Positions 2,563 to 44,863 of a stretch of DNA of 64,000 bases are shown here, in pieces (the first letter of the stretch is position 1; each line of letters starts with the position of its first letter). The stretch comes from Escherichia coli (GTDB lineage: Bacteria; Pseudomonadota; Gammaproteobacteria; Enterobacterales; Enterobacteriaceae), in the NCBI RefSeq assembly GCF_046105845.1, contig NZ_CP151004.1, one strand, 5' to 3'. A program made the translations under genes and the position numbers. The notes beneath the pieces are model-generated. The model was not told the origin of the DNA, did not search any database, and saw nothing but the letters and a program-made list of their open reading frames with translations.

Positions 2563-2898
2563 ATGGATAAAGAACGCATCATTCAGGAATTTGTGCCCGG
2601 TAAACAGGTCACACTGGCGCATCTCATCGCGCATCCCGGCGAGGAACTGGCGAAGAAAATCGGCGTTCCTGATGCGGGCGCAATCGGCATTATGACGCTA
2701 ACTCCCGGCGAAACGGCGATGATCGCCGGTGATTTAGCACTAAAAGCCGCCGATGTGCATATCGGTTTTCTCGACCGTTTTAGCGGCGCGTTGGTGATTT
2801 ATGGCTCGGTGGGTGCAGTAGAAGAAGCGTTATCACAAACCGTCAGCGGTTTAGGGCGTTTATTAAATTATACGCTTTGTGAAATGACCAAAAGTTAA
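2563..2898 (+). CDS. eutS: Ethanolamine-utilisation microcompartment shell protein EutS (BMC domain)
   Basis: 111-aa translation [29 protein letters not shown]..; first gene of eut cluster; upstream in-frame Met of ORF track (2491) rejected. Confidence 0.92.
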
Positions 2899-2910
2899 TA
2901 CGAGGCATTC

Positions 2911-3390
2911 ATGAAACGAATTGCGTTTGTGGGTACCGTCGGGGCAGGAAAAACAACGTTATTTAATGCGTTGCAGGGAGATTATACCCTCGCCAGAAAA
3001 ACGCAGGCCGTAGAATTTAATGATAAGGGCGATATTGATACGCCGGGTGAATATTTTAGCCATCCCCGCTGGTATCACGCCTTAATTACCACGCTACAGG
3101 ATGTGGACATGCTGATCTATGTCCATGGCGCAAATGACCCGGAAAGCCGATTGCCTGCCGGGTTGCTGGATATTGGCGTCAGCAAACGGCAAATCGCCAT
3201 CATCAGTAAAACGGACATGCCGGATGCTGACGTCGCCGCAACGCGAAAGTTATTGCTTGAGACGGGCTTCGAGGAGCCGATTTTCGAGCTAAACAGCCAC
3301 GACCCGCAAAGCGTGCAGCAACTGGTGGATTATCTGGCATCTCTCACCAAACAGGAGGAAGCAGGTGAAAAAACTCATCACAGCGAATGA
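2911..3390 (+). CDS. eutP: Ethanolamine utilisation protein EutP (P-loop NTPase)
   Basis: 159 aa, Walker A motif GTVGAGKTT near N-terminus; position between eutS and eutQ. Confidence 0.92.
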   Translation: MKRIAFVGTVGAGKTTLFNALQGDYTLARKTQAVEFNDKGDIDTPGEYFSHPRWYHALITTLQDVDMLIYVHGANDPESRLPAGLLDIGVSKRQIAIISKTDMPDADVAATRKLLLETGFEEPIFELNSHDPQSVQQLVDYLASLTKQEEAGEKTHHSE

Positions 3391-4066
3391 TATTCGTGAA
3401 GCACACGCGCGCGGCGAACAGGCAATGTCCGTGGTTCTGCGCGCCAGCATTATTACCCCGGAAGCCCGTGAAGTGGCAGATCTACTGGGTTTTACCATCA
3501 CTGAATGTGATGAATCGACCCCGGTAACGGCGTCCGTTCCCGCCAGCGTGCCAGCCGATAAAACCGAAAGCCAGCGCATCCGCGAAACCATCATCGCCCA
3601 GCTACCGGAAGGCCAGTTTACCGAAAGCCTGGTCGCGCAGCTGATGGAAAAAGTGATGAAGGAAAAACTGTCGCTGGAGCAGGGTGCAATGCAGCCGAGT
3701 TTCAAATCGGTGACCGGCAAAGGCGGCATCAAAGTTATTGATGGCAGCAGCGTCAAGTTTGGTCGTTTCGACGGCGCACAGCCACACTGCGTCGGATTAA
3801 CGGATCTGGTCACCGGAGACGACGGCAGCAGCATGGCCGCTGGTTTTATGCAGTGGGAGAACGCCTTCTTCCCGTGGACCCTGAACTATGACGAAATCGA
3901 CATGGTACTGGAAGGGGAACTGCACGTTCGCCACGAAGGCGAAACCATGATCGCCAAAGCAGGCGACGTGATGTTTATCCCGAAAGGCTCCAGCATCGAA
4001 TTTGGTACGACATCCAGCGTGAAATTCCTGTATGTCGCCTGGCCGGCTAACTGGCAATCCCTATGA
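3365..4066 (+). CDS. eutQ: Ethanolamine utilisation protein EutQ (cupin-fold)
   Basis: 233 aa; GTG start at 3365 preceded by aggaggaa SD; overlaps eutP 3' end; translation MKKLITANDIREAHARGEQ.. Confidence 0.9.
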   Translation: MKKLITANDIREAHARGEQAMSVVLRASIITPEAREVADLLGFTITECDESTPVTASVPASVPADKTESQRIRETIIAQLPEGQFTESLVAQLMEKVMKEKLSLEQGAMQPSFKSVTGKGGIKVIDGSSVKFGRFDGAQPHCVGLTDLVTGDDGSSMAAGFMQWENAFFPWTLNYDEIDMVLEGELHVRHEGETMIAKAGDVMFIPKGSSIEFGTTSSVKFLYVAWPANWQSL

Positions 4067-4866
4067 AAGATTTCATCACCGAAGCATGGCTAAGAGCGAA
4101 CCATACGCTCAGCGAAGGCGCAGAGATCCATCTCCCTGCGGACAGTCGCCTGACGCCCTCTGCCCGGGAGTTGCTGGAAAGCCGCCATCTGCGCATCAAG
4201 TTTATTGACGAGCAGGGCCGCCTGTTTGTTGACGATGAACAGCAGCAGCCGCAGCCCGTTCATGGGCTGACCAGTAGCGATGAACATCCGCAGGCGTGCT
4301 GCGAACTGTGCCGCCAGCCGGTGGCGAAAAAGCCGGATACGCTGACTCACCTGTCGGCGGAAAAAATGGTTGCCAAAAGCGATCCGCGTCTGGGTTTTCG
4401 TGCGGTTCTCGACAGCACCATTGCGCTGGCAGTGTGGCTGCAAATTGAACTGGCGGAACCGTGGCAGCCGTGGCTGGCGGATATCCGTTCGCGTCTTGGC
4501 AACATTATGCGTGCCGATGCGCTGGGGGAACCGCTGGGCGATCAAGCGATTGTCGGGCTTTCTGACGAAGATCTGCACCGGCTTTCTCATCAGCCGTTGC
4601 GTTATCTTGGTCACGATCATCTGGTGCCGGAAGCCAGCCACGGGCGCGATGCGGCGTTGCTGAATCTGCTACGCACCAAAGTGCGGGAAACCGAAACCGT
4701 AGCGGCGCAGGTGTTTATCACCCGCAGCTTTGAAGTATTACGCCCGGACATCTTGCAGGCGCTGAACCGCCTTTCCAGCACGGTCTACGTGATGATGATC
4801 CTGAGCGTAACGAAGCAGCCGCTAACGGTGAAGCAGATCCAACAACGACTGGGGGAAACGCAATGA
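4063..4866 (+). CDS. eutT: EutT corrinoid adenosyltransferase
   Basis: 267 aa; ATGA start/stop overlap with eutQ; position in eut operon. Confidence 0.9.
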
Positions 4867-5879
4867 TTATTGAACGTTGTCGTGAACTGGCGTTGCGAGC
4901 GCCCGCCACAGTGGTTTTTCCGGATGCGTTAGATCAACGTGTGCTGAAAGCTGCGCAATATTTACATCAACAAGGTCTGGCAACGCCCATTCTGGTCGCC
5001 AATCCGTTTGAACTTCGTCAGTTTGCGCTCAGTCACGGCGTGGCGATGGACGGGCTACAGGTGATAGATCCACATGGCAACCTCGCAATGCGGGAAGAAT
5101 TTGCCCATCGCTGGCTGGCCCGCGCGGGCGAAAAAACGCCGCCGGATGCGCTGGAAAAACTCACCGAACCGCTTATGTTCGCCGCAGCAATGGTCAGCGC
5201 CGGTAAAGCGGATGTCTGTATCGCGGGCAACCTCTCTTCCACGGCGAATGTGCTGCGTGCCGGATTACGCATTATCGGCTTGCAGCCAGGCTGTAAAACG
5301 CTCTCCTCCATTTTCCTGATGCTGCCACAGTACAGTGGCCCCGCATTGGGCTTTGCCGATTGCAGCGTGGTGCCACAGCCGACGGCGGCGCAGTTGGCGG
5401 ATATCGCGCTTGCCAGCGCCGAAACCTGGCGCGCCATCACCGGAGAAGAGCCGCGCGTGGCGATGTTGTCGTTTTCCAGTAACGGCAGCGCCCGTCACCC
5501 CTGCGTTGCCAATGTCCAGCAGGCGACAGAAATCGTCCGTGAGCGCGCGCCGCAGTTGGTAGTCGATGGCGAGTTGCAGTTTGACGCCGCCTTCGTGCCG
5601 GAAGTGGCGGCGCAAAAAGCGCCTGCCAGCCCGCTACAAGGCAAGGCCAATGTGATGGTTTTTCCGTCGCTGGAAGCCGGAAATATTGGCTACAAAATCG
5701 CACAACGACTCGGCGGATATCGTGCCGTCGGGCCATTGATACAAGGACTTGCCGCGCCGATGCACGATCTCTCTCGTGGTTGTAGCGTGCAGGAAATTAT
5801 CGAGCTGGCGCTGGTGGCAGCTGTGCCGCGTCAGACAGAAGTAAACCGTGAAAGCAGTTTACAAACACTGGTTGAATGA
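4863..5879 (+). CDS. eutD: EutD phosphotransacetylase (Pta family)
   Basis: 338 aa Pta-like translation; ATGA overlap with eutT. Confidence 0.92.
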
Positions 5880-5917
5880 ACGGTCCCGTTCTGGACCCTG
5901 ATAAAGAGGAAAGCACA

Positions 5918-6211
5918 ATGGAAGCATTAGGAATGATCGAAACCCGGGGCCTGGTTGCACTGATTGAGGCTTCTGACGCGATGGTTAAAGCTGCGCGCGT
6001 CAAGCTGGTTGGTGTTAAGCAGATTGGCGGCGGCCTGTGTACTGCCATGGTTCGTGGTGATGTTGCAGCCTGTAAAGCCGCGACCGACGCAGGTGCTGCA
6101 GCGGCACAGCGTATCGGCGAGCTGGTATCTGTACACGTTATCCCGCGTCCGCACGGCGACCTGGAAGAAGTCTTCCCGATCGGCCTGAAAGGCGATAGCA
6201 GCAACCTGTAA
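5918..6211 (+). CDS. eutM: EutM major microcompartment shell protein (BMC-H)
   Basis: 97 aa [28 protein letters not shown]..; SD aaagagga 8 nt upstream; ORF-track N-terminal extension (5876) rejected. Confidence 0.93.
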
Positions 6212-6317
6212 TCACCCTGTGTGACGTCGATTCGGGCGTCACGCTCTCTCCTTTTTCAGTTTACCTTCCGCGGAGGGTAGGGGGAGCTTTTACCTGAAAT
6301 ACGCCACGGAGGCGGGT

Positions 6318-6605
6318 ATGAAACTGGCAGTCGTCACTGGACAAATTGTTTGTACCGTACGCCATCACGGACTGGCGCATGACAAATTGCTGATGGTGGA
6401 AATGATTGATCCACAAGGTAATCCTGACGGGCAATGTGCCGTCGCCATCGACAATATTGGCGCGGGAACCGGGGAGTGGGTGTTGCTGGTGAGTGGCAGT
6501 TCTGCCCGCCAGGCGCATAAAAGCGAAACGTCACCGGTCGATCTGTGCGTGATTGGCATCGTCGATGAGGTGGTGTCTGGCGGTCAGGTAATTTTCCACA
6601 AATAA
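6318..6605 (+). CDS. eutN: EutN microcompartment vertex protein (BMC-P)
   Basis: 95 aa MKLAVVTGQIVCTVRHHGL..; follows eutM. Confidence 0.92.
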   Translation: MKLAVVTGQIVCTVRHHGLAHDKLLMVEMIDPQGNPDGQCAVAIDNIGAGTGEWVLLVSGSSARQAHKSETSPVDLCVIGIVDEVVSGGQVIFHK

Positions 6606-6616
6606 GGCAGAACATC

Positions 6617-8020
6617 ATGAATCAACAGGATATTGAACAGGTGGTGAAAGCGGTACTGCTGAAAATGCAAAGCAGTGACACGCCGCCCGCCGCCGTTCAT
6701 GAGATAGGCGTTTTCGCGTCCCTGGATGACGCCGTTGCGGCAGCCAAAATTGCCCAGCAAGGGTTAAAGAGCGTGGCAATGCGCCAGTTAGCCATTGCTG
6801 CCATTCGTGAAGCAGGCGAAAAACACGCCAGAGATTTAGCGGAACTTGCCGTCAGTGAAACCGGCATGGGCCGCATCGAAGATAAATTTGCCAAAAACGT
6901 CGCTCAGGCGCGCGGCACACCGGGCGTTGAGTGCCTCTCTCCGCAGGTGCTGACTGGCGACAACGGCCTGACTTTAATTGAAAACGCGCCCTGGGGCGTG
7001 GTGGCTTCGGTGACGCCTTCCACTAACCCGGCGGCAACCGTCATTAATAACGCCATCAGCCTGATTGCCGCGGGCAACAGCGTCATTTTTGCCCCGCATC
7101 CGGCGGCGAAAAAAGTCTCCCAGCGGGCGATCACGCTGCTCAACCAGGCGATTGTTGCCGCAGGCGGGCCGGAAAACTTACTGGTTACTGTGGCCAATCC
7201 GGATATCGAAACCGCGCAACGTTTGTTCAAGTTCCCGGGTATCGGCCTGCTGGTGGTGACCGGCGGCGAAGCGGTAGTGGAAGCGGCGCGTAAACACACC
7301 AATAAACGTCTGATTGCCGCAGGTGCTGGCAACCCGCCGGTAGTGGTGGATGAAACCGCTGACCTCGCCCGTGCAGCTCAGTCCATCGTCAAAGGCGCGT
7401 CTTTCGATAACAACATCATTTGTGCCGACGAAAAGGTACTGATTGTTGTGGATAGCGTAGCCGATGAACTGATGCGTCTGATGGAAGGCCAGCACGCGGT
7501 GAAACTGACCGCAGAGCAGGCGCAGCAGCTACAACCGGTGTTGCTGAAAAATATCGACGAGCGCGGAAAAGGCACCGTCAGCCGTGACTGGGTTGGTCGT
7601 GATGCGGCGAAAATCGCGGCGGCAATCGGCCTTACAGTTCCGGAACAAACGCGACTGCTGTTTGTAGAAACCACCGCAGAACATCCGTTTGCCGTGACCG
7701 AACTGATGATGCCGGTGCTGCCCGTCGTGCGCGTCGCCAACGTGGCGGATGCCATTGCGCTGGCGGTGAAACTGGAAGGCGGTTGCCACCACACGGCGGC
7801 AATGCACTCGCGCAATATCGAGAACATGAACCAGATGGCGAATGCCATTGATACCAGCATTTTCGTTAAGAACGGACCGTGCATTGCCGGGCTGGGGCTG
7901 GGCGGGGAAGGCTGGACCACCATGACCATCACCACGCCAACCGGTGAAGGGGTAACCAGCGCGCGTACGTTTGTCCGTCTGCGTCGCTGTGTATTAGTCG
8001 ATGCGTTTCGCATTGTTTAA
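6617..8020 (+). CDS. eutE: EutE CoA-acylating acetaldehyde dehydrogenase
   Basis: 467 aa aldehyde-dehydrogenase-like translation with N-terminal BMC-targeting-like helix; operon position. Confidence 0.92.
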   Translation: MNQQDIEQVVKAVLLKMQSSDTPPAAVHEIGVFASLDDAVAAAKIAQQGLKSVAMRQLAIAAIREAGEKHARDLAELAVSETGMGRIEDKFAKNVAQARGTPGVECLSPQVLTGDNGLTLIENAPWGVVASVTPSTNPAATVINNAISLIAAGNSVIFAPHPAAKKVSQRAITLLNQAIVAAGGPENLLVTVANPDIETAQRLFKFPGIGLLVVTGGEAVVEAARKHTNKRLIAAGAGNPPVVVDETADLARAAQSIVKGASFDNNIICADEKVLIVVDSVADELMRLMEGQHAVKLTAEQAQQLQPVLLKNIDERGKGTVSRDWVGRDAAKIAAAIGLTVPEQTRLLFVETTAEHPFAVTELMMPVLPVVRVANVADAIALAVKLEGGCHHTAAMHSRNIENMNQMANAIDTSIFVKNGPCIAGLGLGGEGWTTMTITTPTGEGVTSARTFVRLRRCVLVDAFRIV

Positions 8021-8030
8021 GGAGTAACCG

Positions 8031-8867
8031 ATGGCGCACGACGAACAATGGCTCACCCCACGTCTGCACATAGCGGCAACGCTGTGTAACCAGACGCCTG
8101 CCGCGACGGAATCTCCGCTGTGGCTGGGGGTGGATTTGGGCACCTGCGATGTGGTGTCGATGGTTGTTGACCGCGACGGTCAGCCGGTGGCGGTATGCCT
8201 CGACTGGGCTGATGTGGTCCGCGACGGCATCGTCTGGGATTTCTTCGGTGCGGTCACCATTGTTCGTCGCCATCTCGACACCCTCGAGCAGCAATTCGGT
8301 CGCCGTTTTAGCCATGCGGCGACCTCTTTTCCTCCAGGTACGGACCCGCGTATTTCCATCAACGTGCTGGAGTCTGCCGGGCTGGAAGTGAGCCATGTGC
8401 TGGATGAGCCAACCGCAGTCGCGGATCTGCTGCAACTGGACAACGCCGGTGTAGTGGATATCGGCGGTGGCACTACCGGCATTGCCATCGTGAAAAAGGG
8501 CAAGGTGACGTACTCGGCAGATGAAGCCACCGGCGGACATCACATCTCTCTGACTCTCGCCGGAAATCGTCGTATTTCGCTGGAAGAGGCAGAGCAGTAC
8601 AAGCGCGGTCACGGTGAAGAGATTTGGCCCGCGGTGAAACCGGTGTACGAAAAAATGGCGGACATTGTTGCCCGGCATATTGAAGGGCAGGGCATTACTG
8701 ATTTATGGCTGGCGGGCGGCTCCTGTATGCAACCGGGCGTGGCGGAACTGTTTTGCAAACAATTCCCGGCGTTACAGGTGCATCTACCGCAGCACAGTTT
8801 GTTTATGACCCCGCTGGCGATCGCCAGTAGCGGGCGAGAGAAAGCGGAGGGGATCTATGCAAAATGA
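8031..8867 (+). CDS. eutJ: EutJ Hsp70/actin-fold chaperone-like protein
   Basis: 278 aa; motifs DLGTCDV, VDIGGGTTGIA typical of actin/Hsp70 ATPase fold. Confidence 0.9.
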   Translation: MAHDEQWLTPRLHIAATLCNQTPAATESPLWLGVDLGTCDVVSMVVDRDGQPVAVCLDWADVVRDGIVWDFFGAVTIVRRHLDTLEQQFGRRFSHAATSFPPGTDPRISINVLESAGLEVSHVLDEPTAVADLLQLDNAGVVDIGGGTTGIAIVKKGKVTYSADEATGGHHISLTLAGNRRISLEEAEQYKRGHGEEIWPAVKPVYEKMADIVARHIEGQGITDLWLAGGSCMQPGVAELFCKQFPALQVHLPQHSLFMTPLAIASSGREKAEGIYAK

Positions 8868-10044
8868 ATTGCAGACCGCGCTCTTTCAGGCGTTCGATAC
8901 CCTGAATCTGCAACGGGTAAAAACATTTAGCGTTCCACCGGTGACGCTTTGCGGTCCGGGCGCGATGAGCAGTTGCGGGCAGCAAGCGCAAACGCGTGGG
9001 CTGAAACATCTGTTCGTGATGGCAGACAGCTTTTTGCATCAGGCGGGGATGACCGCCGGGCTGACGCGTAGCCTGGCCGTTAAAGGTATCGCCATGACGC
9101 TCTGGCCATGTCTGGTGGGCGAACCGTGCATCACCGACGTGTGTGCAGCCGTGGCGCAGTTGCGTGAATCGGGTTGCGATGGGGTGATCGCGTTTGGTGG
9201 TGGCTCGGTGCTGGATGCGGCAAAAGCCGTGGCGTTGCTGGTGACGAATCCCGATAGCACGCTGGCAGAAATGTCAGAAACCAGCATTCTGCAACCGCGC
9301 CTGCCGTTGATTGCCATTCCAACGACCGCCGGAACCGGCTCTGAAACCACCAACGTAACGGTGATTATCGACGCTGTGAGCGGGCGCAAGCAGGTGTTAG
9401 CCCACGCCTCGCTGATGCCGGATGTGGCGATTCTCGACGCTGCGCTGACCGAAGGCGTGCCGTCGCATGTCACGGCGATGACTGGCATTGATGCGTTAAC
9501 CCATGCTATTGAAGCGTACAGCGCGCTGAACGCGACACCGTTTACCGACAGCCTGGCGATTGGCGCAATCGCGATGATTGGTAAATCACTGCCGAAAGCG
9601 GTGGGCTACGGTCATGACCTTGCCGCGCGCGAGAGCATGTTGCTGGCTTCATGCATGGCGGGAATGGCGTTTTCCAGTGCGGGGCTTGGGTTATGCCACG
9701 CGATGGCGCATCAGCCGGGGGCGGCGCTGCATATTCCGCACGGTCTGGCGAACGCCATGTTGCTGCCAACGGTGATGGAATTTAACCGGATGGTTTGTCG
9801 TGAACGCTTTAGTCAGATTGGTCGGGCGCTGCGAACTAAAAAATCCGACGATCGTGACGCTATTAACGCGGTAAGTGAGCTGATTGCGGAAGTCGGGATT
9901 GGTAAACGACTGGGCGATATTGGTGCGACATCTGCGCATTACGGCGCATGGGCGCAGGCCGCGCTGGAAGATATTTGTCTGCGCAGCAACCCGCGTACCG
10001 CCAGCCTGGAGCAGATTATTGGTCTGTATGCTGCGGCGCAATAA
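8857..10044 (+). CDS. eutG: EutG iron-containing alcohol dehydrogenase
   Basis: 395 aa Fe-ADH-like translation; overlaps eutJ 3' end by 11 nt. Confidence 0.92.
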   Translation: MQNELQTALFQAFDTLNLQRVKTFSVPPVTLCGPGAMSSCGQQAQTRGLKHLFVMADSFLHQAGMTAGLTRSLAVKGIAMTLWPCLVGEPCITDVCAAVAQLRESGCDGVIAFGGGSVLDAAKAVALLVTNPDSTLAEMSETSILQPRLPLIAIPTTAGTGSETTNVTVIIDAVSGRKQVLAHASLMPDVAILDAALTEGVPSHVTAMTGIDALTHAIEAYSALNATPFTDSLAIGAIAMIGKSLPKAVGYGHDLAARESMLLASCMAGMAFSSAGLGLCHAMAHQPGAALHIPHGLANAMLLPTVMEFNRMVCRERFSQIGRALRTKKSDDRDAINAVSELIAEVGIGKRLGDIGATSAHYGAWAQAALEDICLRSNPRTASLEQIIGLYAAAQ

Positions 10045-10057
10045 AAGTGTACGGACA

Positions 10058-10160
10058 GTCCCCTCGCCCCTTTGGGGAGAGGGTTAGGGTGAGGGGAACA
10101 GAGTCGCGCCGGTGCAAACAATTACCCTCACCCCGGCCCCTCGGCTTCCAGAGTGAGGGA
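10058..10160. repeat. GC-rich palindromic intergenic repeat cluster (REP/BIME-like) between eutG and eutH
   Basis: cccctcgcccctttggggagagggttagggtgagggg ... ccctcaccccggcccctcgg; imperfect inverted repeats flanking a short spacer. Confidence 0.6.
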
Positions 10161-10213
10161 AAAACCCACTTTCAGCATTGGCAATAAATAACAACTAACA
10201 GGGAGTAAAGGTG

Positions 10214-11440
10214 ATGGGAATTAACGAAATCATCATGTACATCATGATGTTCTTTATGCTGATAGCTGCCGTAGACAGGATCCTGTCGCAGTTCGGTGGT
10301 TCTGCTCGTTTCCTCGGTAAGTTCGGTAAAAGTATCGAAGGATCAGGCGGGCAGTTTGAAGAAGGCTTTATGGCAATGGGCGCTCTGGGCCTGGCGATGG
10401 TCGGTATGACCGCGCTGGCACCGGTACTGGCTCACGTACTCGGGCCGGTAATTATCCCGGTTTACGAAATGCTCGGTGCAAACCCGTCAATGTTCGCCGG
10501 AACACTGCTGGCGTGCGATATGGGCGGGTTCTTCCTCGCCAAAGAGCTGGCGGGCGGCGACGTAGCAGCGTGGCTATACTCTGGGTTAATTCTCGGGTCG
10601 ATGATGGGGCCAACGATTGTGTTTTCCATTCCGGTGGCGCTCGGCATTATCGAACCTTCTGACCGTCGTTATCTGGCGCTCGGCGTGCTGGCGGGCATTG
10701 TGACCATTCCGATTGGCTGTATTGCTGGTGGTCTGGTTGCTATGTACTCCGGTGTGCAGATCAACGGTCAGCCGGTGGAATTCACCTTTGCGCTGATCCT
10801 GATGAACATGATCCCGGTACTTATCGTTGCGGTGCTGGTGGCGCTGGGGCTGAAATTCATCCCGGAAAAAATGATCAACGGCTTCCAGATCTTCGCCAAA
10901 TTCCTCGTTGCATTGATCACCCTCGGTCTTGCTGCCGCGGTAGTGAAATTCCTCCTTGGCTGGGAACTGATCCCCGGTCTGGATCCTATCTTTATGGCCC
11001 CTGGCGATAAACCCGGTGAAGTGATGCGCGCCATTGAAGTTATCGGTTCTATCTCCTGCGTTCTGTTAGGGGCGTACCCGATGGTACTGCTGCTGACTCG
11101 CTGGTTTGAAAAACCGCTGATGAGCGTCGGTAAAGTGCTGAATATGAACAACATCGCGGCAGCTGGCATGGTGGCAACGCTTGCCAACAATATCCCGATG
11201 TTCGGCATGATGAAGCAGATGGATACCCGCGGCAAAGTGATCAACTGTGCCTTCGCCGTTTCCGCTGCTTTCGCCCTGGGTGACCACTTAGGCTTCGCCG
11301 CTGCCAACATGAACGCCATGATTTTCCCGATGATTGTCGGCAAGTTGATCGGCGGCGTAACGGCGATTGGCGTGGCGATGATGCTGGTGCCAAAAGAAGA
11401 CGCGACCGCGGCCAAAACCGAAGTGGAGGCACAATCGTGA
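10214..11440 (+). CDS. eutH: EutH ethanolamine permease
   Basis: 408 aa polytopic membrane protein MGINEIIMYIMMFFMLIAAVD..; ATG at 10214 with ggag SD chosen over GTG at 10211. Confidence 0.9.
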   Translation: MGINEIIMYIMMFFMLIAAVDRILSQFGGSARFLGKFGKSIEGSGGQFEEGFMAMGALGLAMVGMTALAPVLAHVLGPVIIPVYEMLGANPSMFAGTLLACDMGGFFLAKELAGGDVAAWLYSGLILGSMMGPTIVFSIPVALGIIEPSDRRYLALGVLAGIVTIPIGCIAGGLVAMYSGVQINGQPVEFTFALILMNMIPVLIVAVLVALGLKFIPEKMINGFQIFAKFLVALITLGLAAAVVKFLLGWELIPGLDPIFMAPGDKPGEVMRAIEVIGSISCVLLGAYPMVLLLTRWFEKPLMSVGKVLNMNNIAAAGMVATLANNIPMFGMMKQMDTRGKVINCAFAVSAAFALGDHLGFAAANMNAMIFPMIVGKLIGGVTAIGVAMMLVPKEDATAAKTEVEAQS

Positions 11441-12840
11441 ACACTCGCCAGCTACTGAGCGTCGGTATCGATATCGGCACCACCACCACCCAGGTGATCT
11501 TCTCCCACCTGGAGCTGGTTAACCGTGCGGCGGTGTCGCAGGTGCCGCGCTACGAATTCATCAAACGCGAAATTAGCTGGCAAAGCCCGGTGTTCTTTAC
11601 CCCTGTCGATAAACAGGGTGGTTTAAAAGAAGCGGAACTGAAATCGCTGATTTTAGAGCAATATCAGGCTGCGGGCATTGCGCCGGAAAGCGTTGATTCT
11701 GGTGCCATCATCATCACCGGTGAAAGCGCGAAAACCCGCAACGCTCGCCCGGCGGTGATGACGCTCTCCCAGTCGCTGGGCGATTTTGTCGTCGCCAGCG
11801 CCGGGCCGCATCTCGAATCCGTGATCGCCGGTCACGGTGCCGGGGCGCAAACCCTTTCTGAACAACGGCTGTGTCGGGTCCTGAATATCGATATCGGCGG
11901 TGGCACCGCGAACTACGCCCTGTTCGATGCCGGAAAAATCAGCGGCACCGCCTGCCTCAACGTCGGCGGTCGCCTGCTGGAAACCGACAGCCAGGGGCGC
12001 GTGGTTTACGCTCATAAACCGGGGCAGATGATTGTGGATGAGTGCTTCGGTGCAGGCACTGACGCCCGTTCGCTGACCGGCGCGCAGCTGGTGCAGGTTA
12101 CCCGGCGGATGGCAGAACTGATTGTCGAAGTGATTGACGGAACGCTCTCGCCGCTCGCGCAGGCATTGATGCAAACCGGTTTGTTGCCCGCAGGTGTTAC
12201 GCCCGAAATCATTACGCTTTCTGGCGGCGTGGGCGAATGTTATCGCCACCAGCCCGCCGACCCGTTCTGTTTTGCCGATATCGGCCCGCTGCTGGCAACG
12301 GCGCTGCATGACCATCCGAGCCTGCGTGAGATGAACGTGCAGTTTCCGGCGCAAACCGTACGCGCCACGGTGATTGGCGCGGGTGCACATACCCTTTCGC
12401 TCTCTGGCAGCACAATCTGGCTGGAGGGCGTACAACTGCCGCTGCGCAATTTGCCGGTGGCGATCCCGATTGATGAAACGGATCTGGTGAGTGCCTGGCA
12501 ACAAGCGCTAATTCAACTGGATCTTTGCCCCAAAACTGACGCGTACGTGCTGGCGCTTCCCGCCTCGCTGCCTGTGCGTTACGCCGCGGTACTGACGGTC
12601 ATCAACGCGCTGGTCGATTTCGTCGCGCGTTTTCCGAATCCGCATCCCCTGCTGGTGGTGGCCGGGCAGGACTTTGGTAAAGCTCTGGGCATGTTGTTGC
12701 GCCCACAGCTACAACAACTCCCGTTGGCAGTCATTGACGAAGTGATTGTCCGCGCGGGGGACTATATCGACATTGGTACGCCTCTTTTTGGCCGATCGGT
12801 TGTGCCGGTGACGGTGAAATCACTCGCATTTCCTTCCTGA
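11437..12840 (+). CDS. eutA: EutA ethanolamine ammonia-lyase reactivase
   Basis: 467 aa; GTG start overlapping eutH stop; translation ..NTRQLLSVGIDIGTTTTQVIFS.. Confidence 0.9.
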   Translation: MNTRQLLSVGIDIGTTTTQVIFSHLELVNRAAVSQVPRYEFIKREISWQSPVFFTPVDKQGGLKEAELKSLILEQYQAAGIAPESVDSGAIIITGESAKTRNARPAVMTLSQSLGDFVVASAGPHLESVIAGHGAGAQTLSEQRLCRVLNIDIGGGTANYALFDAGKISGTACLNVGGRLLETDSQGRVVYAHKPGQMIVDECFGAGTDARSLTGAQLVQVTRRMAELIVEVIDGTLSPLAQALMQTGLLPAGVTPEIITLSGGVGECYRHQPADPFCFADIGPLLATALHDHPSLREMNVQFPAQTVRATVIGAGAHTLSLSGSTIWLEGVQLPLRNLPVAIPIDETDLVSAWQQALIQLDLCPKTDAYVLALPASLPVRYAAVLTVINALVDFVARFPNPHPLLVVAGQDFGKALGMLLRPQLQQLPLAVIDEVIVRAGDYIDIGTPLFGRSVVPVTVKSLAFPS

Positions 12841-12851
12841 GGGAACGACTT

Positions 12852-14213
12852 ATGAAACTAAAGACCACATTGTTCGGCAATGTATATCAGTTTAAGGATG
12901 TAAAAGAGGTGCTGGCTAAAGCCAACGAACTGCGTTCGGGGGATGTGCTGGCAGGCGTTGCAGCGGCAAGTTCACAGGAGCGCGTGGCGGCAAAGCAGGT
13001 GTTGTCGGAAATGACCGTAGCGGACATCCGCAATAATCCGGTGATTGCCTATGAAGATGACTGCGTGACGCGGCTGATTCAGGACGATGTTAACGAAACG
13101 GCCTACAACCAGATTAAAAACTGGAGCATCAGCGAACTGCGTGAGTATGTGCTAAGCGATGAAACCAGCGTGGACGACATTGCCTTTACCCGCAAAGGGC
13201 TGACCTCGGAAGTGGTCGCGGCGGTAGCGAAGATTTGCTCCAACGCGGACCTGATCTACGGCGCGAAGAAAATGCCGGTGATCAAAAAGGCCAATACCAC
13301 CATCGGTATTCCGGGCACCTTCAGCGCCCGCTTGCAGCCAAACGACACCCGTGACGACGTGCAAAGTATCGCCGCGCAAATCTACGAAGGGCTTTCCTTC
13401 GGGGTGGGCGATGCGGTGATCGGCGTTAACCCGGTGACTGACGACGTGGAAAACTTAAGCCGCGTGTTGGACACCATTTACGGCGTGATCGACAAATTCA
13501 ACATCCCAACTCAGGGCTGCGTGCTGGCGCACGTCACCACCCAGATTGAAGCGATCCGTCGTGGCGCACCAGGCGGGCTGATTTTCCAGAGTATCTGCGG
13601 CAGCGAAAAAGGGCTGAAAGAATTTGGCGTGGAGCTGGCGATGCTCGACGAAGCGCGCGCAGTGGGCGCAGAGTTCAATCGTATCGCCGGGGAAAACTGC
13701 CTCTACTTCGAAACCGGACAAGGTTCGGCGCTGTCTGCTGGCGCTAACTTCGGCGCAGACCAGGTGACGATGGAAGCGCGTAACTACGGGCTGGCGCGTC
13801 ATTACGATCCGTTTATCGTCAACACCGTGGTCGGCTTTATTGGGCCGGAGTATCTCTACAACGACCGCCAGATTATCCGTGCGGGCTTAGAAGATCACTT
13901 TATGGGTAAGCTGAGCGGCATCTCTATGGGCTGTGACTGCTGCTACACCAACCACGCTGACGCTGACCAGAACCTCAACGAAAACCTCATGATCCTGCTC
14001 GCCACCGCAGGCTGCAACTACATCATGGGGATGCCGCTGGGCGATGACATCATGCTCAACTATCAGACCACCGCATTCCACGACACTGCCACTGTGCGTC
14101 AGTTACTCAACCTGCGCCCGTCACCGGAGTTTGAACGCTGGCTGGAAAGCATGGGCATTATGGCAAACGGTCGCCTGACCAAACGGGCGGGCGATCCGTC
14201 ACTGTTCTTCTGA
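12852..14213 (+). CDS. eutB: Ethanolamine ammonia-lyase large subunit EutB
   Basis: 453 aa; begins 11 nt after eutA stop; recognised EutB translation. Confidence 0.95.
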   Translation: MKLKTTLFGNVYQFKDVKEVLAKANELRSGDVLAGVAAASSQERVAAKQVLSEMTVADIRNNPVIAYEDDCVTRLIQDDVNETAYNQIKNWSISELREYVLSDETSVDDIAFTRKGLTSEVVAAVAKICSNADLIYGAKKMPVIKKANTTIGIPGTFSARLQPNDTRDDVQSIAAQIYEGLSFGVGDAVIGVNPVTDDVENLSRVLDTIYGVIDKFNIPTQGCVLAHVTTQIEAIRRGAPGGLIFQSICGSEKGLKEFGVELAMLDEARAVGAEFNRIAGENCLYFETGQGSALSAGANFGADQVTMEARNYGLARHYDPFIVNTVVGFIGPEYLYNDRQIIRAGLEDHFMGKLSGISMGCDCCYTNHADADQNLNENLMILLATAGCNYIMGMPLGDDIMLNYQTTAFHDTATVRQLLNLRPSPEFERWLESMGIMANGRLTKRAGDPSLFF

Positions 14214-14233
14214 TGACGCGGAGATAACACATC

Positions 14234-15118
14234 ATGGATCAAAAACAGATTGAAGAAATTGTACGCAGCGTGATGGCGTCAATGGGACAAGCGGCCCCCG
14301 CGCCGTCAGAAGCAAAGTGCGCCACCACCTGTGCGGCACCGGTGACCTCGGAAAGCTGCGCGCTGGACTTAGGCTCTGCGGAAGCAAAAGCGTGGATTGG
14401 CGTTGAAAACCCGCATCGCGCAGACGTATTAACAGAACTGCGTCGCAGCACCGTGGCCCGCGTTTGTACCGGTCGTGCCGGTCCGCGTCCGCGTACCCAG
14501 GCGTTGCTGCGTTTCCTGGCCGATCACTCTCGTTCGAAAGATACCGTACTGAAAGAAGTGCCGGAAGAGTGGGTGAAAGCGCAGGGCTTGCTGGAAGTCC
14601 GCTCTGAAATTAGCGACAAAAATCTCTACCTGACTCGTCCGGATATGGGCCGCCGCCTGTGTGCAGAAGCTGTTGAAGCCCTGAAAGCACAGTGTGTTGC
14701 TAATCCGGACGTGCAGGTCGTTATTTCTGATGGCCTGTCAACTGATGCGATCACCGTGAACTACGAAGAGATCCTGCCACCGCTGATGGCGGGCCTGAAA
14801 CAGGCCGGGCTGAAAGTCGGTACGCCATTCTTTGTTCGTTATGGTCGCGTGAAGATTGAAGATCAGATCGGTGAGATCCTCGGCGCGAAAGTGGTGATCC
14901 TGCTGGTGGGGGAACGCCCGGGATTAGGGCAGTCAGAAAGTCTCTCCTGCTACGCCGTTTACTCGCCGCGTATGGCAACCACCGTTGAAGCCGATCGCAC
15001 CTGTATCTCTAACATTCACCAGGGCGGCACGCCGCCGGTTGAAGCCGCAGCCGTCATTGTGGATTTGGCGAAACGTATGCTGGAGCAGAAAGCATCCGGC
15101 ATCAACATGACCCGATAA
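14234..15118 (+). CDS. eutC: Ethanolamine ammonia-lyase small subunit EutC
   Basis: 294 aa; follows eutB. Confidence 0.93.
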
Positions 15119-15127
15119 GGAGGCATC

Positions 15128-15787
15128 ATGCCAGCTTTAGATTTGATTCGACCGTCGGTAACCGCCATGCGGGTGATTGCCTCCGTTAACGCCGAATTTG
15201 CGCGTGAACTGAAATTGCCGCCGCATATTCGTAGCCTTGGGCTGATTTCTGCCGACTCCGATGACGTAACCTACATTGCGGCTGACGAAGCGACCAAGCA
15301 GGCGATGGTCGAAGTGGTGTATGGCCGCTCGCTGTATGCGGGAGCTGCACACGGACCGTCACCGACTGCCGGTGAAGTGCTGATTATGCTCGGTGGGCCA
15401 AACCCGGCGGAAGTGCGTGCTGGTCTGGATGCGATGGTTGCGCATATTGAAAATGGCGCGGCTTTCCAGTGGGCTAATGATGCGCAAGATACGGCATTCC
15501 TGGCACATGTAGTTTCGCGTACCGGTTCTTATCTCTCATCAACCGCCGGGATCACGCTTGGCGATCCGATGGCGTATCTGGTGGCACCGCCGCTGGAAGC
15601 GACCTACGGCATTGATGCAGCCCTGAAATCTGCCGACGTACAGCTGGTGACCTATGTCCCGCCGCCGTCTGAAACCAACTACTCGGCAGCATTTTTAACC
15701 GGTAGCCAGGCCGCGTGTAAAGCAGCCTGTAACGCCTTTACCGATGCAGTGCTGGAAATCGCGCGTAATCCAATCCAGCGTGCGTAA
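15128..15787 (+). CDS. eutL: EutL microcompartment shell protein (tandem BMC domain)
   Basis: 219 aa; follows eutC. Confidence 0.92.
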
Positions 15788-15799
15788 CGGAGGTTGCCG

Positions 15800-16300
15800 A
15801 TGATCAATGCACTGGGATTGCTGGAAGTGGACGGCATGGTCGCCGCGATAGATGCAGCTGATGCCATGCTCAAAGCAGCTAACGTTCGTCTGCTCAGTCA
15901 CGAAGTGCTTGACCCTGGTCGCCTAACGCTGGTGGTGGAAGGCGATCTGGCGGCGTGTCGTGCGGCGCTGGACGCAGGTTGTGCTGCCGCGATGCGTACC
16001 GGGCGTGTCATCAGCCGTAAGGAGATCGGTCGGCCAGACGATGACACCCAGTGGCTGGTTACTGGCTTTAACCGCCAGCCGAAGCAACCCGTAAAGGAAC
16101 CCGACGCGCCAGTTATCGTCGCGGAATCTGCTGACGAGTTGTTGGCGCTGTTAACATCAGTACGTCAGGGAATGACGGCAGGAGAAGTGGCAGCCCACTT
16201 TGGCTGGCCGCTCGAAAAAGCCAGAAATGCGCTCGAACAGCTCTTTTCTGCCGGGACGTTACGTAAACGCAGTAGTCGTTATCGTCTCAAGCCCCATTAA
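15800..16300 (+). CDS. eutK: EutK microcompartment shell protein (BMC domain with C-terminal basic extension)
   Basis: 166 aa MINALGLLEVDGMVAAIDAADAMLKAANV..; ATG at 15800 with acggagg SD chosen over upstream TTG. Confidence 0.9.
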   Translation: MINALGLLEVDGMVAAIDAADAMLKAANVRLLSHEVLDPGRLTLVVEGDLAACRAALDAGCAAAMRTGRVISRKEIGRPDDDTQWLVTGFNRQPKQPVKEPDAPVIVAESADELLALLTSVRQGMTAGEVAAHFGWPLEKARNALEQLFSAGTLRKRSSRYRLKPH

Positions 16301-16345
16301 CCTGTCGGAGGTGCCGGGTGTCCTACAACACCCGGCATTAACATC

Positions 16346-17398
16346 ATGAAAAAGACCCGTACAGCCAATTTGCACCATCTTTATCATGAACCCTTACCCG
16401 AAAACCTGAAGCTCACGCCGAAGGTCGAAGTGGATAATGTTCATCAACGACAGACAACGGATGTCTATGAACATGCTTTGACGATTACCGCCTGGCAGCA
16501 GATTTACGATCAGCTGCATCCGGGCAAGTTTCATGGTGAATTTACGGAAATTCTACTCGATGATATTCAGGTTTTTCGTGAATACACCGGTCTGGCGCTG
16601 CGTCAGTCGTGCCTGGTCTGGCCGAACTCGTTCTGGTTTGGCATTCCGGCGACGCGCGGTGAGCAGGGATTTATCGGTTCGCAATGTTTGGGAAGCGCAG
16701 AAATTGCGACGCGCCCTGGCGGCACCGAGTTTGAATTAAGTACGCCGGACGATTACACGATCCTGGGCGTAGTGCTTTCTGAAGATGTCATCACCCGTCA
16801 GGCTAACTTTTTGCATAATCCGGATCGGGTATTACATATGCTGCGTAGCCAGTCGGCGCTGGAAGTGAAAGAACAGCATAAAGCCGCGCTGTGGGGCTTT
16901 GTCCAACAGGCGCTGGCGACATTTTGCGAGAACCCGGAAAATCTTCATCAGCCTGCTGTGCGTAAAGTGCTGGGGGATAATTTGCTAATGGCGATGGGGG
17001 CGATGCTGGAAGAAGCGCAGCCAATGGTGACGGCGGAAAGCATCAGTCATCAGAGTTACCGTAGATTACTTTCCCGCGCCCGTGAATATGTGCTGGAAAA
17101 TATGTCTGAGCCGGTGACGGTGCTGGACTTGTGTAATCAACTGCATGTCAGCCGCCGCACGCTACAAAACGCGTTTCACGCTATTTTAGGCATTGGCCCA
17201 AATGCGTGGCTGAAACGCATTCGCCTGAACGCCGTACGCCGCGAACTGATAAGCCCTTGGTCGCAAAGCACAACGGTAAAAGACGCAGCCATGCAGTGGG
17301 GATTCTGGCATCTGGGGCAATTCGCCACGGATTATCAGCAACTGTTTGCCGAGAAGCCGTCACTGACGCTGCATCAGCGGATGCGGGAATGGGGGTGA
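16346..17398 (+). CDS. eutR: EutR AraC-family transcriptional activator of the eut operon
   Basis: 350 aa with C-terminal AraC-type HTH; last gene of eut cluster. Confidence 0.92.
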
Positions 17399-21882: not shown

Positions 21883-21906
21883 GCGTTTCTGATTCGATGA
21901 TGAAAG

Positions 21907-21938
21907 GCCAGCCAGTAACATTACTGACTGGCTTTTTT
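21907..21938. terminator. Bidirectional rho-independent terminator between yfeX (+) and yfeW (-)
   Basis: gccagccagtaa..ttactgactggc hairpin flanked by A-rich and tttttt runs. Confidence 0.75.
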
Positions 21939-27523: not shown

Positions 27524-27556
27524 TCCTCCCTGCATTTGTGGGGAGGATTTCGTCTT
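27524..27556 (+). terminator. Rho-independent terminator after ucpA
   Basis: tcctccc..gggagga hairpin followed by tttcgtctt. Confidence 0.7.
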
Positions 27557-27681
27557 GAACTAAGTTCTTATTCCCTTTTCAACTTCCAAATCACCAAACG
27601 GTATATAAAACCGTTACTCCTTTCACGTCCGTTATAAATATGATGGCTATTAGAAAGTCATTAAATTTATAAGGGTGCGCA

Positions 27682-37841: not shown

Positions 37842-38025
37842 GGCCTGTCCTTAACTGTATGAAATTGGGATACAACAGGTAGCATACCCGCTCAGAGAAT
37901 ATGCGGAAGTAAGGATTTAGCATATCTATATGCAGAAGGGAAATAATGACATGCAAGATGGAATAAGGGGCGGCATAAGCCACCCCTGTTTCACACAAGC
38001 GGTTTACAAAATAACCGGTAGATTG

Positions 38026-38787
38026 TTACCGCCACATCGCGTGTTTATCGCGATAGCAATCGACCCACATCGCCGTCGCACCACAAACGGCAACGGGCAT
38101 GATGAACAGATTAAGCAGAGGGATCATCGTAAACAGGCTGGTTAAAGCACCAAACTGCATATTGGTGATTTTGCGTGTGCGCAGGGCGGTGCGCATCTCT
38201 TTAAACGGCACTTTGTGGTTATCGAAGGGGTAATCGCAATACTGGATGGCTAACATCCAGGCGCTAAACAGGAACCACAGTACCGGCGCGACGGTTTGCC
38301 CAATACCAGGGATGAAGTAAAGAATTAGCAATACAATTGCGCGCGGCAGATACCAGGCAAATTTTTGCCATTCGCGTTTCATGATTCGCGGCACATCTTT
38401 CATGATACCGAAAATCCCGGTATCTGGCGGTGTAGCGCCAGTCAATCGTGCTTCCAGTTGTTCAGCCAATAAACCATTGAACGGAGCGGCAATCCAGTTA
38501 GCAATCGTTGAGAAGAAATAGCCAAACACTAACAGCACAGAGATGACAGCCAGAGGCCACAACAGATAGCTCAGCCATTGTAACCAGTCCGGAACATAAC
38601 TCATGAGAGTCGGGATCCAGACATCGAGTTGCGTAAAGAGCCACCAGAATGCGCCCCCCATCAACAAAATATTGACCAGCAGCGGTAAAATAACGAAACG
38701 CCGAATCCCAGGTTGCGAGACGAGCTTCCAGCCTTGCGCAAAATAGTAAAAACCGCTGCGTGGGGCAGATGTGAATGATGAAACCAT
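38026..38787 (-). CDS. cysZ: Sulfate transporter CysZ
   Basis: 253 aa polytopic membrane protein [31 protein letters not shown].. Confidence 0.94.
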
Positions 38788-39016
38788 AATCAGGATGAGC
38801 TCCTTTTGACCAATCCCAGGAAAATTCTGCGTATTTTACCGGGTAATTGCGCAATGGACAGTTAGGATATGTTCGAAAAAACAGCAAAAAGCACGATTTC
38901 ATCTATCTTTGTGCTGTGAAAGTTAATAGTGCACTTGCACTTGAGGTAATCGGCAAATACTCTTAGTGAGTAAATGTTTGCCGTGGTGGCAAGGTGTTAG
39001 AACAACAGAGAATATA

Positions 39017-40015
39017 ATGATGCAGGATTTGCGTCTGATATTAATCATTGTTGGCGCGATCGCCATAATCGCTTTACTGGTACATGGTTTCTGGACCAGC
39101 CGTAAAGAACGATCTTCTATGTTCCGCGATCGGCCATTAAAACGAATGAAGTCAAAACGTGACGACGATTCTTATGACGAGGATGTCGAAGATGATGAGG
39201 GCGTTGGTGAGGTTCGTGTTCACCGCGTGAATCATGCCCCGGCTAACGCCCAGGAGCATGAGGCTGCTCGTCCGTCGCCGCAACACCAGTACCAACCGCC
39301 TTATGCGTCTGCGCAGCCGCGTCAACCGGTCCAGCAGCCGCCTGAAGCGCAAGTACCGCCGCAACATGCTCCGCGTCCAGCGCAGCCGGTGCAGCAACCC
39401 GTGCAGCAGCCTGCCTATCAGCCGCAGCCTGAACAGCCGTTGCAGCAGCCAGTTTCGCCACAGGTCGCATCAGCGCCACAGCCAGTGCATTCAGCACCGC
39501 AACCGGCACAACAGGCTTTCCAGCCTGCAGAGCCTGTAGCGGCACCACAGCCTGAGCCTGTAGCGGAACCGGCTCCAGTTATGGATAAACCGAAGCGCAA
39601 AGAAGCGGTGATTATCATGAACGTCGCGGCGCATCACGGTAGCGAGCTAAACGGTGAACTGCTTCTTAACAGCATTCAACAAGCGGGCTTCATTTTTGGC
39701 GATATGAATATTTACCATCGTCATCTTAGCCCGGATGGCAGCGGCCCGGCGTTATTCAGCCTGGCGAATATGGTGAAACCGGGAACCTTTGATCCTGAAA
39801 TGAAGGATTTCACTACTCCGGGTGTCACTATCTTTATGCAGGTACCGTCTTACGGTGACGAGCTGCAGAACTTCAAGCTGATGCTGCAATCTGCGCAGCA
39901 TATTGCCGATGAAGTGGGCGGTGTCGTGCTTGACGATCAGCGCCGTATGATGACTCCGCAGAAATTGCGCGAGTACCAGGACATCATCCGCGAAGTCAAA
40001 GACGCCAACGCCTGA
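39017..40015 (+). CDS. zipA: Cell division protein ZipA
   Basis: 332 aa [25 protein letters not shown].. with N-terminal TM anchor, P/Q-rich linker, C-terminal FtsZ-binding domain; ORF-track extension (38966) rejected. Confidence 0.93.
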
Positions 40016-40044
40016 TACACTTAAGGCAAATTAACTCCTCTTCG

Positions 40045-40068
40045 AACCCCCGCTTGTCGGGGGTTTTT
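40045..40068 (+). terminator. Rho-independent terminator after zipA
   Basis: cccccg-cttgt-cggggg hairpin followed by ttttt. Confidence 0.8.
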
Positions 40069-40076
40069 AGCATTGA

Positions 40077-42101
<2,025 letters not shown>

Positions 42102-42102
42102 G

Positions 42103-42321
42103 ATGGAAAAAGAGCAGCTGATTGAAATAGCCAATACGATAATGCCGTTTGGCAAATACAAAGGGCGTCGCTTAATCGACCTGCCGGAGGAGTATCTTCT
42201 GTGGTTTGCCCGCAAAGATGAGTTCCCGGCAGGGAAGCTCGGTGAGCTAATGCAAATCACGCTGCTGATTAAAACTGAGGGGCTGACGCAACTGGTCCAG
42301 CCCCTGAAGCGTCCTCTTTAA
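42103..42321 (+). CDS. ypeB: Small protein YpeB (DUF3820)
   Basis: 72 aa MEKEQLIEIANTIMPFGKYKGRRLIDLPEEYLLWF..; starts 1 nt after ligA stop. Confidence 0.85.
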   Translation: MEKEQLIEIANTIMPFGKYKGRRLIDLPEEYLLWFARKDEFPAGKLGELMQITLLIKTEGLTQLVQPLKRPL

Positions 42322-43316
42322 GCTTTATTGGCGCGGCTTTCCTGCTGCGCCTGTAACTGTTCGGTCTGGTGTTTGTATCGACGCGCCAGCACCGCACAGA
42401 CCATCAATTGGATCTGATGGAAAATCATCAGAGGCAGCACCATCATACCGATCACCGATGTGGGGAAAAGAATGTTTGCCATCGGGATGCCATTTGCCAG
42501 ACTCTTTTTCGAACCACAAAAGACGATAGTAATTTCATCTGCCTTATTGAAGCCCAGTCGGCGTGCCATAAAGACGTTAACTACAATCACGATAGCCAGA
42601 AGAACGCAGCTGACCACCACGATAAACAGCAATGATCCCCAGCCAACTTTATGCCAGATACCATTAACAACGGCTTCGCTGAACGCTGTATAAACCACCA
42701 ATAGAATGGACGTCTGGTCAGTTTTCGCAATCCATTTTTTATTGCGCGACACCCAGTCACCAATCCACGGCCGGGAAAGATGCCCCAACACAAACGGCAG
42801 CAGCAGTTGCAGCATAATTTTACCGACCTGCTCAAGGCTGCCCCCTGCACCGTGAACATTCATCACCAGACCAACCAGCAATGGTGAAAGGAAAATCCCC
42901 AGCAGGCTGGATGCTGACGCAGAACAAACCGCCGCCGCGACGTTACCGCCCGCCATTGACGTGAAGGCGATTGCAGACTGCACGGTAGCGGGGAGAATGC
43001 ACAAGTAGAGAAAACCGGAGTAGAGCATCGGGTCGACATTTACCGGTTTCCACCAGGCAAACAGCACGCCCAGAATCGGAAACAGCACGAAGGTGCTGCA
43101 CATTACCCACAAATGCAGTCGCCAGTGCCCACCGCCAGCAATAATCGCCTCACGCGACAACTTCGCGCCGTGCATAAAAAACAGCAGGGCAATCGCTGCG
43201 GTGGTCAGATTTTCAAAGAAGGGGACGAAATCGCCTCTGGCCGGAAAGAAAGAGGCCAGCAACACCACCGTGATCAGGGTTAAGGTGAAAGGATCGAGGA
43301 TACGAAAAAGTTTCAT
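42318..43316 (-). CDS. yfeH: Putative bile-acid/Na+ symporter family membrane transporter YfeH
   Basis: 332 aa polytopic membrane protein; stop codon overlaps ypeB stop in antiparallel. Confidence 0.88.
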   Translation of the reverse strand: MKLFRILDPFTLTLITVVLLASFFPARGDFVPFFENLTTAAIALLFFMHGAKLSREAIIAGGGHWRLHLWVMCSTFVLFPILGVLFAWWKPVNVDPMLYSGFLYLCILPATVQSAIAFTSMAGGNVAAAVCSASASSLLGIFLSPLLVGLVMNVHGAGGSLEQVGKIMLQLLLPFVLGHLSRPWIGDWVSRNKKWIAKTDQTSILLVVYTAFSEAVVNGIWHKVGWGSLLFIVVVSCVLLAIVIVVNVFMARRLGFNKADEITIVFCGSKKSLANGIPMANILFPTSVIGMMVLPLMIFHQIQLMVCAVLARRYKHQTEQLQAQQESRANKA

Positions 43317-43405
43317 AAAGACTCCAGATGATCGATGGTTCTATTGTGCTTCTTCCAGTTTGAGAAATAAAATTGATTTATTGCATCCATTCATGAAGAA
43401 AACAG

Positions 43406-44332: not shown

Positions 44333-44664
44333 ATATCGATCTGAGTCGTTTTTTCAACAGGATTTGGAAGGGATGCATTCAGAGACAAACGCTGCTCTTT
44401 CTCCTGCGCTTTTTCTGCCTGCTGTCTTTGCAACTGCGCCAGTTGTGTTTCCAGTAGGGTGATTTGCTGCTGAATCAATTCGGCCTGTTTTTGCTTGTCT
44501 TCAGCACTGCCGCTAGTGTCTGCAATCTCTTTAATTTGTTGAGTGAGTTTGATGATTTGCTGACTTATCCGCGCAATTTGTGAAGCAACATCGCTACCTT
44601 CTGATGCCCTGTTACTACTCTGTGTTTGTATGGAAGGAATTGAAGTTGGAGAGATAGTGGCCAT
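44323..44664 (-). CDS. Hypothetical coiled-coil protein, FlxA-like (flagellar-regulon-type protein of unknown function)
   Basis: 113-aa ORF with GAGG SD 8 nt upstream of ATG; S/T-rich N-terminus then Q/L/K/E-rich predicted coiled coil ([57 protein letters not shown]), C-terminus ..QIDIYI; own sigma-28-like promoter; family assignment from memory, not searched. Confidence 0.6.
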
Positions 44665-44692
44665 TGTTCAGTCCTCGTCACTGTACGAGGTA

Positions 44693-44719: not shown

Positions 44720-44752
44720 GAAGAAAAATCAATCTTACAAACCGCATATAGC

Positions 44753-44779: not shown

Positions 44780-44783
44780 ACAT

Positions 44784-44859: not shown

Positions 44860-44863
44860 GAAG

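Follow-up and report, generated by a model that had tools for sequence, protein, structure and literature searches.

The eutA-eutB junction of an Escherichia coli eut operon is uninterrupted and carries an unoccupied IntZ-type attachment site

The gene order eutG-eutH-eutA-eutB-eutC is common to the 17-gene eut operon of Salmonella enterica (Kofoid et al. 1999, cited in PMC7617246) and to EUT1 loci of other Enterobacteriaceae. In E. coli K-12 MG1655, a "cryptic prophage CPZ-55" of 6,790 bp is annotated between eutA and eutB (NC_000913.3, positions 2558691-2565480), and the eutA/eutB site has been termed a prophage insertion hot spot (PMC6652756), with an 8-bp duplication, 5'-TCAGGAAG-3' on the other strand, reported just past the eutA stop codon (PMC6379469). 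In strain BW25113, ethanolamine induces eutS and eutR but not eutB, and microcompartments are absent (PMC7617246); scarless removal of the prophage restores growth of this strain on ethanolamine as nitrogen source (PMC11334477). CPZ-55 has been lost from the K-12 strains W3110 and EMG2 (PMC9997739) and, by precise excision, from ER2796 (PMC4444293), and its excision has been reported to occur at approximately 1e-7 to 1e-6 per cell (PMC4632033).

We analyzed this locus in a 64,000-nt stretch of an E. coli genome (contig NZ_CP151004.1), referred to here as the window, for which a preliminary description had proposed an ancestral eutA-eutB junction of 11 nt, free of the prophage carried by K-12. 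Our reading, to which we assign a probability of about 0.96, is that the window holds an ordinary uninterrupted enterobacterial eut operon in which eutA and eutB are adjacent and an IntZ-type attachment site is unoccupied. The positions of the relevant features are given in Table 1. Relative to the S. enterica operon and the EUT1 loci, the window shows ordinary sequence divergence only, with EutA proteins 77-98% identical. Both the uninterrupted junction and its contrast with MG1655 have been published previously.

Table 1. Features of the eut operon and the eutA-eutB junction in the window
Feature	Positions	Strand	Remarks
17-gene eut operon eutSPQTDMNEJGHABCLKR	2563..17398	+	complete, canonical order, one strand
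eutA, ethanolamine ammonia-lyase reactivating factor	11437..12840	+	467 aa; ORF list
Conserved block	12757..12951	+	last ~85 nt of eutA, spacer and first ~100 nt of eutB
eutA 3' end, imperfectly imitated by integrated elements at their eutB-proximal end	12818..12840	+	junction comparison
Unoccupied attB core CTTCCTGA	12833..12840	+	last 8 nt of eutA; duplicated at both CPZ-55 ends in MG1655
eutA-eutB spacer GGGAACGACTT	12841..12851	+	11 nt, read directly
eutB, ethanolamine ammonia-lyase large subunit	12852..14213	+	453 aa; ATG at 12852; ORF list

The 11-nt adjacency of eutA and eutB, with no mobile element between them, was confirmed in the window, and the boundaries of both genes proved exact by the sequence itself, the list of open reading frames and NCBIfam matches; the junction was judged on gene adjacency and homology, to which a chance test is not applicable. 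The eutA gene has a GTG start that overlaps the end of eutH and a TGA stop at 12838-12840, and the junction reads ...TTCCTTCCTGA GGGAACGACTT ATGAAACTA... or, over positions 12826-12863, ...GCATTTCCTTCCTGA GGGAACGACTT ATGAAACTAAAG... EutA matched the NCBIfam equivalog NF007991 with 1067 bits (cut-off 799) and EutB matched NF011649 with 665 bits (cut-off 554). Compared to the K-12 proteins, the EutA of the window is 97.9% identical in amino acids over its full length, with no internal stops, while EutB is 100% identical despite approximately 3% divergence of its DNA, which indicates strong purifying selection.

Comparison with the occupied locus of MG1655, where the eutA stop and the eutB ATG are 6,801 nt apart, identifies the point of insertion. 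The eutA-side junction in MG1655 reads ...CATTTCCTTCCTGA/ATGCGG... and the eutB-side junction ...CATCGATTCTTCCTGA/GGGAACGACTTATG, with the slash marking the boundary; the exact repeat at these junctions is the 8-mer CTTCCTGA, to the left of which the element mimics the 3' end of eutA imperfectly. In sites of the CPZ-55 type, the insert is thus flanked by a duplication of the core together with an imperfect 19- to 21-bp copy of the eutA 3' end; positions 12818-12840 read AATCACTCGCATTTCCTTCCTGA in the window, as compared to AATCATCGATTCTTCCTGA in the K-12 attR and TCACTCATCACTTCTTCCTGA in the attR of strain E1. When the bacterial halves of the MG1655 attL and attR are joined, they give exactly the sequence of the window, which is therefore a clean attB. 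The last 8 nt of eutA make up the crossover core of a chromosomal attachment site for IntZ-type tyrosine-recombinase elements, including CPZ-55 and other islands, and this site is empty here.

Searches of the whole window agreed with the preliminary description, which had seen no integrase, attachment-site repeat or phage gene at the junction. K-12 IntZ gave no tblastn match in the 64 kb (best E = 0.59), nor did the whole 6.8-kb CPZ-55 give a blastn match. The 8-mer CTTCCTGA has no flanking duplication, the copy at the end of eutA being the single one at the junction; elsewhere on the + strand it occurs only at 36067, 23 kb away, as chance predicts. No cargo genes, either yffL-yffS or those of other islands, are found in the 11 nt between eutA and eutB.

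With regard to K-12, the picture is less uniform than had been assumed. MG1655 and BW25113 have the same flanking genes as the window, but in MG1655 these are separated by the 6,790-bp element with intZ and yffL-yffS, transcribed against the eut genes, nothing of which is present in the window. Likewise, in the K-12 derivative ATCC 98082, eutA is split from eutB by yffS, yffR, yffQ, yffP, yffO, yffN, yffM, yffL and intZ, each of which runs in the opposite orientation to the eut genes. By contrast, W3110 (NC_007779.1) has an empty 11-nt junction that is identical to the window at 77 of 77 nt; the polymorphism is seen directly in the two extracted K-12 loci, with 11 nt at 14127-14137 in W3110 (L046) and the 6,790-bp CPZ-55 at 4692-11481 in MG1655 (L047). 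The statement that K-12 carries CPZ-55 between eutA and eutB therefore holds for MG1655, as its annotation documents, but not for K-12 as a whole. The preliminary description had regarded an identical 11-bp junction in K-12 as evidence against its proposal; W3110, one K-12 substrain, has just such a junction, yet this refutes nothing. W3110 also has the same eut gene order as the window, but it is a K-12 strain that, like ER2796 and EMG2, is considered to owe its empty site to the loss of CPZ-55 (PMC9997739 for W3110), whereas the window belongs to another lineage. Because CPZ-55 is polymorphic within K-12, K-12 is an unsafe single reference for the eutA-eutB locus.

Elements with an IntZ-type integrase are a minority feature of the species. 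Of 5,426 complete E. coli genomes, 407 (approximately 7.5%) carry an intZ homologue, a frequency close to the published prevalence of 8% of 638 strains (PMC6379469); 216 of these 407 genomes carry a gene at least 99% identical to that of K-12, with K-12 laboratory derivatives making up most of the matches sampled in this class, and 189 carry a gene with 80-90% DNA identity. IntZ itself shows the domains Arm-DNA-bind_3, Phage_int_M and Phage_integrase. Other islands at the eutA end, including those of strain E1 and of UPEC U71 (a "novel prophage", PMC6652756), also use the attB core CTTCCTGA, and their intZ allele is distinct from the K-12 gene. In E1 (NZ_CP195951.1), an island of approximately 10.7 kb (L002, 13405-24137) is inserted at the core CTTCCTGA and carries its own intZ, an AIPR-family (abortive-infection-like) protein, IS1 and hypothetical proteins, all of which are absent from the window. 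The eutA/eutB site looks like a hot spot for islands with variable cargo. Among 50,697 phage records, the closest relative of CPZ-55 by IntZ was only 43% identical (Erwinia phage phiEt88), and neither a source phage nor an attP for CPZ-55 was recovered from these records.

The distribution of the empty state supports the view, also taken in the preliminary description, that the uninterrupted eutA-eutB arrangement is the ancestral form. A megablast search with eutA plus eutB matched 5,423 of the 5,426 complete E. coli genomes, and in 4,964 of the 5,426 (91.5%) the two genes form one contiguous place, a count that joins matches within approximately 1.9 kb and that small insertions would therefore escape. 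For comparison beyond E. coli, we used 35 loci, one genome per species, found with a degenerate pattern for the EutB N-terminus and spanning Citrobacter, Klebsiella, Salmonella arizonae, Yokenella, Pluralibacter, Intestinirhabdus, Pseudocitrobacter and several Escherichia species; as the choice by a conserved EutB N-terminus biases this sample to close relatives, six further loci, picked through EutA at 77-90% identity and including Salmonella enterica, provide a partial correction. A EutA homologue lies directly upstream of eutB in all 35 species loci, and the 11-nt spacer was obtained by direct computation in 33 of them; the remaining two come from Citrobacter assemblies (L025 and L027) in which eutA is frameshifted, yet the 40 nt preceding the eutB ATG match the window in full. 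These 40 nt match the window in 34 of the 35 loci, the exception being E. whittamii, with one C-to-T change within the att core and an unchanged spacer. In all six EutA-selected loci, eutB likewise begins 11 nt past the eutA stop, so that all 41 loci sampled from other lineages of the Enterobacteriaceae have a spacer of 11 nt. The 35 species loci all share the spacer sequence of the window, and two of the six loci picked through EutA show a single mismatch to it. Together with the observation that the inserted state brings an integrase and flanking repeats and is found in a minority of E. coli, these sequence comparisons argue that the empty arrangement came first.

Two alternatives bear on how far this reading extends. 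If the operon were disrupted elsewhere in the window by an insertion, frameshift or deletion, "uninterrupted" would be misleading, and such damage does occur, as partial eutA matches in some E. coli genomes and the frameshifted eutA of the two Citrobacter assemblies illustrate. In the window, however, all 17 K-12 Eut proteins gave ordered, full-length tblastn matches (2563 to 17395) at 96.9-100% identity, none of the 17 open reading frames has an internal stop, a stop codon follows right after each aligned end, and eutG, eutH, eutA, eutB, eutC, eutL, eutK and eutR match NCBIfam equivalogs; the operon is colinear with that of K-12 save for the absence of CPZ-55 and a divergent eutG-eutH intergenic stretch (10045-10182), and the remaining indels in the alignment leave every eut gene undisturbed. 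We thus give disruption elsewhere practically no weight. The second alternative is that the site is secondarily empty, i.e., that an IntZ-type element was once present and was lost by precise, Int-mediated excision that restored attB. CPZ-55 is proficient in excision, as its losses during the laboratory history of K-12 (W3110 and EMG2), its precise loss from ER2796 and the excision rate cited above attest, and the W3110 junction is indistinguishable from that of the window; after precise excision, an empty site and a cured one look the same. The window has no excision scar, but none would be expected. Against this alternative stands the low frequency of intZ, with about half of its matches at the K-12 level of identity, which implies a low prior of past occupancy for any given lineage, and we consider secondary loss very unlikely. 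Accordingly, "ancestral" describes the arrangement and not necessarily the window lineage's own history.

Whichever route led to the empty site, the junction itself lies in an unusually invariant stretch of DNA, which raises the question of whether it is more than a point where two genes meet. In multi-species alignments covering more than 30 species of several genera, the block listed in Table 1 is by far the most conserved stretch of the approximately 7 kb from eutH to eutR, with column conservation of 0.97-1.00, as compared to approximately 0.85-0.93 in the flanks, and with scores of 0.98-1.00 in its 60-nt bins, as compared to 0.82-0.95 elsewhere. Its synonymous sites hardly change among Escherichia, Salmonella, Citrobacter, Klebsiella, Yokenella and relatives, and it exceeds every other junction between eut genes that was examined; its tightest part spans 12796-12874, and its longest invariant run covers 41 nt (12796-12836). 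The att core CTTCCTGA sits in the middle of the block. An antisense open reading frame of 49 aa with a TTG start (12731-12880) maps to the block, which offers no variation by which to judge coding. At the junction, a Shine-Dalgarno-like GAGGG (12839-12843), made up of the GA of the stop codon and the start of the spacer, lies upstream of the eutB ATG and overlaps the eutA stop. Pairing of the GAGGG side (12839-12845) with UUUCCUU in the terminal part of eutA (12829-12835) can give a weak hairpin; the whole 12815-12870 segment, folded in isolation, has -6.2 kcal/mol.

One explanation would place the junction inside a cis-acting element of approximately 130-190 nt under nucleotide-level selection, for example an mRNA element for eutB translation or processing, with integrases exploiting an invariant target. 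This is suggested by the rank of the block within eutH-eutR, by the scarcity of variable third codon positions in it (14 of 60 inside vs. 924 of 1103 outside; Fisher p = 4e-23), and by the position of eutB as an outlier among six eut gene starts, with 0-1 of 30 columns variable at -30..-1 as compared to 11-25 of 30 at the five others. Part of the sample was selected on EutB N-terminal amino acids, which weakens these comparisons, but the pattern holds in the six EutA-selected loci, where the junction bins show 0-2 differences per 30 nt vs. 6-12 in typical bins; the junction is again the least-diverged bin when loci are sampled without reference to the eutB start. On the other hand, only about -50..+30 of the block is retained in the most divergent loci, which is no more than a usual translation-initiation region would occupy, and the block is too invariant for covariation to be read. 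When 12500-13200 was searched against Rfam at E <= 10, the sole match was a meaningless snoRNA of 13.9 bits, and the whole window at gathering threshold gave six tRNAs only; folding of the block did not exceed that of shuffled sequences on either strand (z = 0.26 for + and -1.37 for -), and no sigma-70 promoter site was predicted in 12400-13300. Three further candidates were discarded: two weak terminator-like hairpins on the - strand in 12400-13300 are within chance expectation, manual inspection of 12770-12795 gave no fit to a sigma-54 GG-N10-GC motif, and a second EutR site was not supported, as the block and the eutS promoter region (2270-2562) have only one 8-mer in common, consistent with chance. 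In the literature collection searched, neither a promoter internal to the operon at eutB nor coupling of eutB translation to eutA was the subject of any paper. On balance, an extended element of this kind is possible but rather doubtful, and we regard the more specific proposal that eutB expression is controlled by an undescribed cis-acting RNA or DNA element at approximately 12757-12951, be it a coupling or processing element or the target of an sRNA or protein, as equally tentative. Our best guess, and the conservative reading, is that strong constraint on eutB translation initiation or coupling lies behind the block. If the cis-acting element were real, its invariance would account for the recruitment of the eutA end as an attachment site by IntZ-type islands, comparable to the use of tRNA genes by other integrases; the position of the core in the middle of an invariant stretch would fit the tendency of integrases in general to target conserved sequence.

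For the ordinary uninterrupted operon that we favor, several functional consequences may be proposed. As eutA and eutB are adjacent with a conserved 11-nt spacer, eutBCLKR could be co-transcribed with eutS-eutA from a promoter upstream of eutS. The weak hairpin would pair the GAGGG with the end of eutA and could thereby couple translation of eutB to termination of eutA; such coupling is a reasonable supposition. Published experiments in other strains suggest that an uninterrupted junction is needed for induction of eutB and for growth on ethanolamine, since in MG1655 and BW25113 the prophage abolishes both eutB induction and ethanolamine use. Judged by its genes, the eut operon of the window is structurally competent and, by analogy with these experiments, probably functional. 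For annotators, the eut operon of this strain can thus be recorded as structurally complete and probably functional, unlike that of MG1655 and BW25113, and MG1655 is the exception at the eutA-eutB locus rather than the rule.

The window differs from K-12 in a number of other places, with DNA identities of 96.2-98.2%. Within the operon, EutC (eutC, 14234-15118) has 294 aa as compared to 295 aa in K-12. Positions 44333-44743 hold 410 bp in place of approximately 4.6 kb in K-12 (yfeN, xapA, xapB, a DUF1427 gene, xapR and the rtT sRNA), and this stretch encodes a small glutamine-rich, coiled-coil-like open reading frame on the - strand at about 44340-44665; the absence of xapABR-yfeN was rejected as an unusual feature, as 3,103 of the 5,426 genomes match 38000-50000 of the window contiguously. 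Approximately 958 bp found in K-12 between yfeK and cysM and containing yfeS, which encodes a WGR-domain protein, are missing at 32543/32544, and the window also lacks, at 50485-50496, the IS4-like IS421 of approximately 1.3 kb that the K-12 derivative carries between nupC and pdeA. Smaller intergenic differences from K-12, possibly of the REP type, are located at 10045-10182 (eutG-eutH), 21905-21932 (yfeX-pbp4b) and 27555-27567 (ucpA-cysP). The lineage of the window is probably a divergent Escherichia that is poorly represented among complete genomes. Over eutAB and 38000-50000, the two regions compared, the closest complete RefSeq E. coli genomes reach approximately 98.8-98.9% identity, and the best matches include the soil/leaf-litter isolate VCSW7 and a night-heron isolate.
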